DNA from: Escherichia phage Alux-21
Sequence record: PQ589898.1
Length of the DNA stretch: 42,729 nucleotides
Strand: one strand, 5' to 3'
Position numbers and translations under genes: made by a program. Shown here in pieces: positions 40,859 through 41,162 of this stretch (its first letter is position 1; each line of letters starts with the position of its first letter). Below the pieces are notes generated by a model that saw only the letters and a program-made list of their open reading frames with translations, was not told the origin of the DNA and searched no databases.

Positions 40859-40900
40859 GTGTAATTATGTGGCGTTATTCGCGGTTAAGGTTTTGCACTA

Positions 40901-40924
40901 CCATACCCTAAACCATACCCCAAA
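40901..40924 (+). repeat. tandem 12-mer pair CCATACCCTAAA CCATACCCCAAA
   Basis: Direct tandem repeat between the tRNA-Arg 5' end and the integrase; second pair at 41125-41148. Confidence 0.5.
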
Positions 40925-41124
40925 CTGCAACGCACACATGCTAAGTGTATGTAATTCCTCGTTAATTAACATTGTTGCAATCCGCTTAGAAGGCGGTTAC
41001 AGTGGCTTAATCGCAAGTCATCACAAATCACGCGAACAGCCACTAAGCCACTGCGTTTAAACATCATTCTGCATCATCCCTGGCTAAGTGTTTGCGTTCA
41101 GAACCTGTTTTGACTTGTGCCGAA

Positions 41125-41148
41125 CCGTACCCTAAACCGTACCCTAAT
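41125..41148 (+). repeat. tandem 12-mer pair CCGTACCCTAAA CCGTACCCTAAT (candidate integrase/regulator binding sites)
   Basis: Second tandem pair ending 15 nt upstream of the integrase start codon. Confidence 0.5.
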
Positions 41149-41162
41149 TCGAGGCATAAGCC

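Follow-up and report, generated by a model that had tools for sequence, protein, structure and literature searches.

Tandem 12-mer pairs flanking a tRNA-Arg anticodon-loop mimic are probable integrase arm sites in the attP region of Escherichia phage Alux-21

Two tandem 12-mer pairs lie upstream of the Alux-21 integrase gene

The window analysed here, the 42,729 nucleotides of Escherichia phage Alux-21 (PQ589898.1), carries four 12-mers upstream of its integrase gene, int. We hold with considerable confidence that these are arm sites for the N-terminal domain of the integrase (Int), one pair on each arm of an attP whose core, a mimic of the tRNA-Arg(UCU) anticodon stem-loop, would lie between them. 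The 12-mers are located at 40859-41162, which is the entire intergenic spacer from a tRNA-Arg(TCT) gene on the minus strand to int. The distal (P-arm) pair, at 40901-40924 on the plus strand, consists of CCATACCCTAAA (40901-40912) followed by CCATACCCCAAA (40913-40924); the proximal (P'-arm) pair, at 41125-41148 on the same strand, consists of CCGTACCCTAAA (41125-41136) followed by CCGTACCCTAAT (41137-41148). Both pairs have a period of 12 and are candidate arm-type Int sites. The distal and proximal pairs are separated by a gap of 200 bp, and 15 nt separate the end of the second from the int ATG at 41163; this arrangement had been described in the initial annotation, and its coordinates were confirmed.

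When both strands of the 42.7-kb sequence were searched with the pattern CCRTACCCYAAW, four zero-mismatch matches were obtained, all of them at the two pairs, and the best further match had one mismatch and fell outside 40859-41162. The similarity between the two pairs is wider than the 12-mers themselves, as a repeat search returned a 33-nt direct repeat (40891-40923 versus 41115-41147) with 79% identity. Short two-copy repeats are common in Alux-21, the same kind of search listing many of them, and the 12-mers could on this ground be taken for chance matches, or for a recent local duplication, that have no function. The four exact matches stand against approximately 0.04 expected by chance (our own arithmetic, for a pattern derived from those same copies), and conservation of the repeats, in lineage-specific sequences at a fixed spacing, reaches down to loci with approximately 44% Int identity; the comparative data described below effectively refute such an origin, which we regard as vanishingly improbable.

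A separate 15-nt repeat, AACTGCAACGCAC/GAC (40923-40937 and 42411-42425), was considered as a boundary of the int cassette and rejected; approximately 0.1 such repeats are expected by chance, by a rough estimate, and the first copy is absent in relatives.

The layout is conserved among relatives while the repeat sequence varies by lineage

Alux-21 is a myophage of the Iiscvirinae/Jilinvirus group. Its int region is approximately 96% identical to that of Salmonella phage PT1 and approximately 86% identical to those of Escherichia phage HeidiAbel_Bas97 (HeidiAbel) and Serratia phage MQ-4; remoter matches were found in Pseudomonas phages PPpW-3 and Persinger, Burkholderia phage Mica, Ralstonia phage phiRSP, Achromobacter phage Mano and Klebsiella phage KA2-1. 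Both 12-mer pairs are unchanged or almost unchanged in PT1, HeidiAbel and MQ-4. The non-coding attP spacer is better kept than int itself, with identities of 92% versus 82% in HeidiAbel and 89% versus 83% in MQ-4, which argues for ongoing selection on the non-coding region.

The loci compared comprised the phage relatives, four genome loci and 77 IMG/VR loci encoding relatives of Int. Approximately 40 related loci, in which Int is 44-97% identical, share one order of elements: two tandem pairs with a tRNA-anticodon-like hairpin between them, followed by int. Relative to the int ATG, the period-12 pairs of most loci are found at about -258 to -302 (distal) and about -20 to -55 (proximal). The sequence of the repeat varies by lineage, the forms encountered being CCRTACCC, GTGCACCC, GGGCACCC, GTACACCC and AACCTTACCC, together with the further lineage-specific sequences CAGCACCC, CCGCTACCA, GTGCCACC and GGTTCAACC; the distal pair and the proximal pair of a given locus agree in motif without exception. 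In Alux-21, as in the approximately 40 loci, this repeated motif is present on both sides of the core and differs from the core sequence.

A tRNA anticodon-loop mimic lies at a fixed distance from the proximal pair

The candidate attP core is located at 40982-40996, where the stems CCGC (40982-40985) and GCGG (40993-40996) enclose a 7-nt loop, TTAGAAG (40986-40992). Read on the minus strand, CCGC-CTTCTAA-GCGG mimics the anticodon stem-loop of tRNA-Arg(UCU), and the segment CCGC-TTAGAAG-GCGG is presumed to be the crossover region of attP. Only nine contiguous bp (C-CTTCTAA-G) are common to the core and E. coli argU, and 11 bp are common to the core and the phage's own tRNA.

In type-A relatives, a genuine tRNA 3' half places its anticodon loop at the position of the core. 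These halves correspond to Gly-TCC in Mica, phiRSP and many IMG/VR loci, to Arg-ACG in KA2-1, to Arg-TCT in one locus of our set (L064), and to Lys-TTT or Lys-CTT in other relatives; a tRNA 3' half in attP is the classical means of restoring a split tRNA gene. When the sequence beside the Alux-21 core was read for T-arm or acceptor sequence, where type-A relatives carry the 3' half, none was found. The same bare mimic, with no tRNA 3' half, is present in PT1, HeidiAbel, MQ-4, PPpW-3, Persinger and several IMG/VR genomes.

Counting from the loop's first base, the first ACC of the proximal pair is reached after 143 bp in Alux-21 and after 142-145 bp, mostly 143, in approximately 28 loci of all attP types (KA2-1, which has an Arg-ACG core, was left out of this measurement, its pairs being too degenerate). 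The spacing is the same whether the core has a tRNA 3' half (Gly-TCC, Lys-TTT, Lys-CTT or Arg-TCT) or is bare. The distance from the distal pair to the loop is 80-81 bp in the Alux-21 type and 100-128 bp with a tRNA half present.

The repeat class tracks one residue of the integrase N-terminal domain

The int gene (41163-42374, plus strand) encodes a 403-aa tyrosine integrase with the Pfam domains Arm-DNA-bind_3, Phage_int_M (weak) and Phage_integrase; by reading of the sequence, its ribosome-binding site is GAGG at 41151-41154 on the plus strand, 8 nt upstream of the ATG. Arm-DNA-bind_3 (PF13356) spans Int residues 2-93 (nt 41166-41441) with a score of 36.9 bits against a cut-off of 27, and the only PDB sequence match of Int was 3JU0, the arm-binding domain of a P4-like integrase (E 5e-4). 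An AF2 model of Int (pLDDT 86) predicts a helix at residues 4-13, strands at 18-24, 31-39, 42-53 and 56-65, and a helix at 70-86; when submitted to Foldseek, the model matched full-length lambda Int and the arm-binding domains 3JTZ, 3JU0 and 3RMP (TM 0.72-0.78).

Co-variation was examined in an alignment of 47 Int proteins, in which related sequences are not independent samples and for which repeat classes were assigned by eye; among 403 alignment columns, residue 52 was the best predictor of repeat class, with a normalised mutual information of 0.90. This residue, Y52 in Alux-21 (nt 41316-41318), is placed by the model at the end of strand 3 in the N-domain sheet. Tyrosine or tryptophan at position 52 accompanied CC(N)T-ACCC at 17 of 17 loci, lysine or arginine accompanied G(N)(N)C-ACCC and similar motifs at 21 of 23, and glutamine accompanied the remaining repeat classes at all seven loci that have it (7/7). 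The association is seen repeatedly, in lineages other than nearest relatives; the Alux-21 clade (Y/W) has outgroups of the K type with 61-67% identity in the catalytic domain, and distant W-type loci, at 44-46%, have the same motif as this clade.

A natural mosaic was found upon comparison of loci L066 and L073 (W52, repeat AACCTTACCC) with L062 and L059 (K52, repeat AGGACACCC or GGGCACCC). These loci have catalytic domains that are 91-94% identical, and they hardly differ over the approximately 190 bp between the pairs, a stretch that comprises the IHF-like motif, tRNA-Lys 3' half and core. Two patches differ, and they differ together: one is the distal pair alone, and the other runs from approximately 60 bp upstream of the proximal pair to about int codon 85. 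Because conserved DNA separates the two patches, simple linkage offers no explanation of the joint switch; matched specificity of repeat and N-terminal domain, to judge from the sequences, does explain it, and this mosaic is the strongest evidence for such a match. Together, the clade-wide layout, the co-variation of repeat and N-terminal domain, and the P4-type character of that domain lead to the conclusion that the repeats are arm-type Int sites, and the 12-mer pairs are very probably docking sites for the Int N-terminal domain. The initial annotation had raised the possibility that the repeats were the true attP arms if an att core was nearby; this suggestion is supported on the same grounds and by the core that lies between the pairs.

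The same annotation had offered excisionase/Cox-type sites as another reading, under which the 12-mers would be recognised not by Int but by a recombination directionality factor (RDF) or small HTH regulator of the Xis, Cox or Apl kind. RDFs typically recognise direct repeats spaced by approximately one helical turn (PMC7498355). Alux-21 does encode an excisionase-like HTH protein of 73 aa (1119-1337, minus strand), a candidate recombination directionality factor that gave no PHROG hit at 1e-5 and that, by tblastn, is 100% identical to HeidiAbel Bas97_0036, named 'excisionase and transcriptional regulator'. RDF sites, however, normally lie on one arm, whereas here matched pairs of one motif are found on both flanks of the core. 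The class of that motif tracks Int residue 52, both pairs switch together with the N-terminal domain in the mosaic, and a satellite-like integrated island (L016, described below) keeps a proximal repeat beside int. The excisionase/Cox reading was set aside on account of this two-sided arrangement and its link to the Int N-terminal domain, and we consider it quite improbable.

Still less probable, and in our judgement hardly credible, is that the repeats are operators, iterons or parS-like sites of some other phage function, for instance in regulating the divergent tRNA-Arg gene or as targets of a ParB-like protein. Upstream of this tRNA gene, which is on the opposite strand, the first pair does lie 42 nt from the 5' end, and a ParB-like gene is close by (39192-40067); yet the layout is tied to int in loci that have no tRNA or ParB-like neighbour (Mica, the L016 island and L014), and the repeats co-vary with the Int N-terminal domain. 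Sites of the parS type are, moreover, usually palindromes.

Candidate accessory sites and a candidate int promoter lie near the arm sites

A degenerate IHF-like motif, GCTAAGTGTATGTAATT, is located at 40940-40956, between the P arm and the core, and is a candidate site for a bending protein. It is a degenerate copy of the family-conserved CTAAGTNNTTGATTTT and resembles the IHF consensus YAANNNNTTGATW, this resemblance being the sole ground on which IHF is named. At 17 of 27 loci, TAAGT was present no farther than about 45-55 nt from the first P-pair anchor, in many cases followed by TTGATTTT; a search of the attP region with the strict IHF consensus WATCARNNNNTTR returned no site. On the P' side, a second GCTAAGTGTTTGCG motif (41083-41096) is a weaker candidate for an accessory-protein site; it is conserved in the Jilinvirus clade and occurs at 6 of 27 loci.

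A candidate int promoter was identified at 41110-41138 on the plus strand, with TTGACT (41110-41115) as -35 element, a 17-nt spacer and TAAACC (41133-41138) as -10 element; the spacer and the -10, which is weak (3/6), are inside pair 2. An exact TTGAC was present no more than 100 nt upstream of the int ATG at 18 of 40 loci, and TTGAC(T/C/A) was found 0-9 nt upstream of the proximal pair in approximately 14 of the 40, regardless of repeat sequence; other loci have near-variants of this -35, namely TTCACT and TTGGCA. A consensus sigma-70 scan of both strands of 40700-41250 detected no promoter, and because of this the proposal rests on the conserved -35-like hexamer only.

As the -10 lies inside the proximal pair, Int autoregulation, which the initial annotation had suggested, is plausible; Int bound to pair 2 would cover the spacer and the -10 and would thereby repress int. 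There is precedent in KplE1, where the promoter of the integrase gene intS is repressed via overlapping P' arm sites (PMC2951348), and in P4, whose Int is cited in the same paper as repressing its own gene through binding close to the start of int.

A complete tRNA-Arg gene beside attP and the possibility of tRNA-dependent lysogeny

In the mechanism that we propose, the N-terminal domains of Int would bind the four arm sites while its core-binding and catalytic domains would bind the inverted repeat of the core, individual Int molecules bridging arm and core sites. Bending proteins would probably help, and the IHF-like motif by the distal pair is a candidate place for this. The resulting intasome would exchange strands inside the 7-nt loop with a host tRNA-Arg(UCU) gene, presumably argU in enterobacteria.

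A complete tRNA-Arg(TCT) gene (40782-40858, minus strand) was detected by ARAGORN and scored 70 bits with Rfam. It lies 42 nt beyond the distal pair and 124 bp from the core, its anticodon and orientation match those of the core mimic, and every relative with a bare core has a complete tRNA-Arg(TCT) in the corresponding place. A bidirectional terminator-like hairpin is located at 40751-40771, 10 nt past the tRNA 3' end. The phage gene is a candidate replacement tRNA, and it is a realistic if tentative possibility, to which we give somewhat less than even chances, that Jilinvirus-type phages and their Pseudomonas relatives (PPpW-3 and Persinger) are built for tRNA-dependent lysogeny. Under such a scheme, Int would cut the anticodon loop of the host tRNA-Arg(UCU) gene and leave that gene split and unrepaired, since the common core is so short that the host tRNA cannot be rebuilt; the argU promoter and 5' half would then be followed directly by the phage tRNA-Arg and, behind it, the terminator at 40751-40771, and the phage tRNA would replace the lost gene.

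Two int-less sister phages, Arya and ECO1230-10, carry independent deletions whose left ends lie inside the core/anticodon-loop motif. The Arya deletion starts directly after ...CCGCTTAGAAGGC of the core, and that of ECO1230-10 directly after ...CCGCTTA of its own tRNA-Arg anticodon loop. The positions of these ends are suggestive of cleavage by Int, falling short of proof. ECO1230-10 was also considered as a simple product of Int recombination between its own tRNA loop and the core, and this was rejected, as the retained stem (CCGC) is not the expected one.

Distant relatives appear in integrated form, and close relatives on genome-length contigs

Two distant relatives are integrated and show what reads as the junction expected for the attP model. 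In L016, whose Int is 55% identical, a host radical-SAM gene comes first, then a tRNA-Arg(TCT) 3' half terminating in the anticodon stem-loop, then a weak repeat and int, with AlpA and a primase beyond int, and the junction between host and island is at the stem-loop. In L014, a locus in a 1.44-Mb Microvirga chromosome, the order is a tRNA-Arg(ACG) 3' half, a tandem repeat and int. A third locus, L012 (Microvirga alba), was rejected as a junction because the start of the contig is too near the tRNA half for attP to be separated from attR.

A megablast search of 40860-42400 against 5,426 complete E. coli genomes gave no match. An attR-type pattern gave one match in IMG/VR, a false positive in a tRNA array, and attR- and attL-type patterns gave zero matches each in JGI metagenomes. 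Close homologues of Int were almost exclusively on genome-length contigs (44 kb or less), and those with more than 55% identity were almost all on contigs of 46 kb or less; in the E. coli 'prophage' contig AATBGZ010000031 attP is intact. The lifestyle of Jilinvirus has been called 'enigmatic', the genus being reported only as lytic, with lysogeny never seen, and the plaques of HeidiAbel are clear (PMC11990801); the BASEL paper cites a prophage of Aeromonas media (CP038441).

The cI-like repressor of HeidiAbel had no tblastn match in Alux-21, and the gap between the exonuclease VIII and helicase genes measures 272 bp in Alux-21 versus 795 bp in HeidiAbel. No repressor emerged when small ORFs close to int and at the start of the sequence were scanned with Pfam and PHROG; the xis-like ORF also went unrecognised in these scans. 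Since a cI-like repressor is absent, the int-attP module may be idle in Alux-21. An alternative to active use thus presents itself, in which the 12-mers are arm sites by descent that are unused for integration, Alux-21 being a virulent derivative whose module is idle, decaying or only keeping int repressed. Besides the missing repressor gene, the deletion of int in Arya and ECO1230-10 would fit such a history, as would the lack of lysogens or junctions in the databases searched and a literature that is lytic only. On the other side, Int is full length and retains every family-invariant residue; the four 12-mers, the core and the spacing are all intact; the non-coding attP region of HeidiAbel and MQ-4 is better conserved than int; and the xis-like gene is 100% identical to that of HeidiAbel. 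We consider disuse of the arm sites possible, albeit on balance unlikely.

Discussion

Taken alone, the Alux-21 repeats are a textbook element, integrase arm sites in an attP, and the design of this attP is ordinary except for the complete spare tRNA-Arg beside the core. The parts worth follow-up are the attP design and the relationship between repeat class and residue 52. A candidate attP, with its arms, core and spacing, is now delineated for a phage group of 'enigmatic' lifestyle, and the question of integration becomes directly assayable at argU.

The arm-binding, core-binding and catalytic domains of Alux-21 Int match lambda Int structures over 365-380 aligned columns, and both systems have tandem arm sites by int, inverted repeats around a 7-bp core segment and an IHF-like motif between arm and core. 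In contrast to lambda, with which sequence identity is approximately 16%, Alux-21 has two sites per arm at a 12-bp period, and its core, which mimics a tRNA anticodon loop, is 143 bp from the int-proximal arm and 81 bp from the distal one.

With the P4-like integrases (P4 Int, Yersinia HPI Int and HAI7 Int), Alux-21 Int shares the Pfam arm family PF13356, its N-terminal domain matching 3JU0 by sequence and 3JU0, 3JTZ and 3RMP by fold; a tRNA gene as target, presumed for Alux-21, and an int that adjoins attP are further likenesses. P4- and HPI-type elements reportedly use the tRNA 3' end or T-loop, whereas the Alux-21 crossover would lie in the anticodon loop, and the integrase belongs to a 42-kb myophage and not to a satellite or island. 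For P4-type arm-site recognition, the loci compared here form a clean natural data set, with many repeat classes, one co-varying residue and one mosaic swap, and it should be useful for attP annotation and integrase re-targeting; residue 52 of P4-type arm-binding domains, if the relationship is true, would be a readable determinant of arm-site specificity.

In KplE1 IntS and its attL (Panis et al. 2010, PMC2951348), the int promoter lies in the recombination region with P' arm sites overlapping the -10, as the candidate promoter of Alux-21 would, and int is beside a tRNA-Arg target, the presumed target in Alux-21 as well; negatively autoregulated int genes were predicted in that study to be common among tRNA-associated integrases. 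Autoregulation in KplE1 was established by reporter fusions and site mutagenesis, whereas in Alux-21 we infer it from a -35-like hexamer; integrase subfamily and repeat sequence differ as well.

A parallel to a bare core with an adjacent tRNA of the same isotype is provided by actinobacteriophages (Guerrero-Bustamante and Hatfull 2024, PMC10865867), in which the tRNA core is also short (8-10 bp, compared with 9 bp for Alux-21 and argU) and is flanked by putative pairs of arm-type sites. For those phages integration, tRNA complementation and the clear plaques of tRNA mutants have all been demonstrated (PMC10865867), whereas Alux-21 is known from sequence design alone; its host would be proteobacterial, it has no recognisable repressor, and its tRNA is directly beside attP and oriented to fall downstream of the split host gene. 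The Alux-21 arrangement matches the design of tRNA-dependent lysogeny, which has so far been shown only in actinobacteriophages; if such lysogeny operates here, it would do so for the first time in phages of Proteobacteria and would give a concrete explanation of the lifestyle of the group.

The attP of P2 and 186 likewise has two direct-repeat Int arm sites per arm, with int adjoining attP as in Alux-21. The two systems differ in that P2 and 186 have another N-terminal domain family, separate Cox or Apl sites, and a target that is no tRNA anticodon loop.

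Deletions of int and the state of attP

The two int-less sister phages, Arya and ECO1230-10, have lost int through independent deletions, both of which begin within the CTTAGAAGG anticodon-loop motif. In Arya (locus L004, 1730-1760), the left end lies inside the copy of the motif in the attP core mimic; in ECO1230-10 (locus L005, 1545-1575), it lies inside the copy in the phage's own tRNA-Arg, which was destroyed by the deletion. The right ends of both deletions fall within the 3' region of int, with microhomology of 3-4 nt. Aberrant cleavage by Int may have been the source of the two deletions.

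One literature example of an E. coli prophage of the Jilinvirus-type group is the 42.4-kb contig AATBGZ010000031 of strain USECESBL382. In this contig (locus L023, 2730-2990) attP is unsplit and intact, with both repeat pairs and the core; the phage in this assembly is therefore not integrated at its attP site.

Among the collected loci of Int relatives, a third type of attP was recognized in int upstream regions (L010, L054-L056 and L065, from IMG/VR and the Achromobacter phage Mano), in which a complete tRNA-Lys(TTT) gene lies between the repeat pairs. In some of these loci the anticodon loop of the tRNA is close to the canonical core position; others (L010, L055) carry a separate loop mimic besides the complete gene. 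Integration through this type of attP would duplicate tRNA-Lys(TTT) rather than split it.

Further repeats and a tRNA-like element around int

An inverted repeat, CAGTGGCTTAATCGC / GCCACTAAGCCACTG (41000-41014 and 41039-41053; 87% complementary, 24 nt apart), directly follows the core on the int side. PT1, HeidiAbel and MQ-4 all retain this inverted repeat, to which an accessory protein might bind, the excisionase-like protein being one candidate. Most of attP, together with int, is also enclosed by a 15-nt direct repeat, AACTGCAACGCACAC / AACTGCAACGCAGAC (40923-40937 and 42411-42425), the significance of which is borderline by our own estimate. The first copy is found only in the window phage, the sequence being different in relatives, and the second is common to the window and ECO1230-10.

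A tRNA-like element with anticodon CAT (42487-42560, + strand; Rfam, 40.9 bits) lies 113 nt beyond the end of int. Three of its acceptor pairs are mismatched, and ARAGORN makes no tRNA call for it at 42487-42560. When Arya is compared with the window, the element is a precise insertion/deletion between GTAACCGGC and ACGCAC; at the matching point ECO1230-10 has ~240 bp of unrelated DNA, including another T-arm-like piece. In the Burkholderia phage Mica, a pseudo-tRNA is annotated 3' of int at a similar position.

The two edges of the window (1-517 and 42700-42729) do not join into a complete circle of sequence: the left edge cuts in at the 3' end of the SSB gene, the right edge falls ~170 nt past the tRNA-like element, and the SprT-like gene, which in relatives lies between these two points, is outside the window.

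A missing repressor gene and the Int catalytic box

HeidiAbel (L103) carries a cI-like repressor gene between its exonuclease VIII and helicase genes, where the gap is 795 bp (4659-5452), versus 272 bp in the window (3625-3896), from which this gene is absent. A tblastn search with this repressor gave no match across the whole window, yet int, attP and the excisionase-like gene are intact. In the Int alignment, R342 (of RDLRR, residues 342-346) is an invariant arginine across the integrase clade, and holds the first position of the usual H-x-x-R catalytic box in place of histidine.
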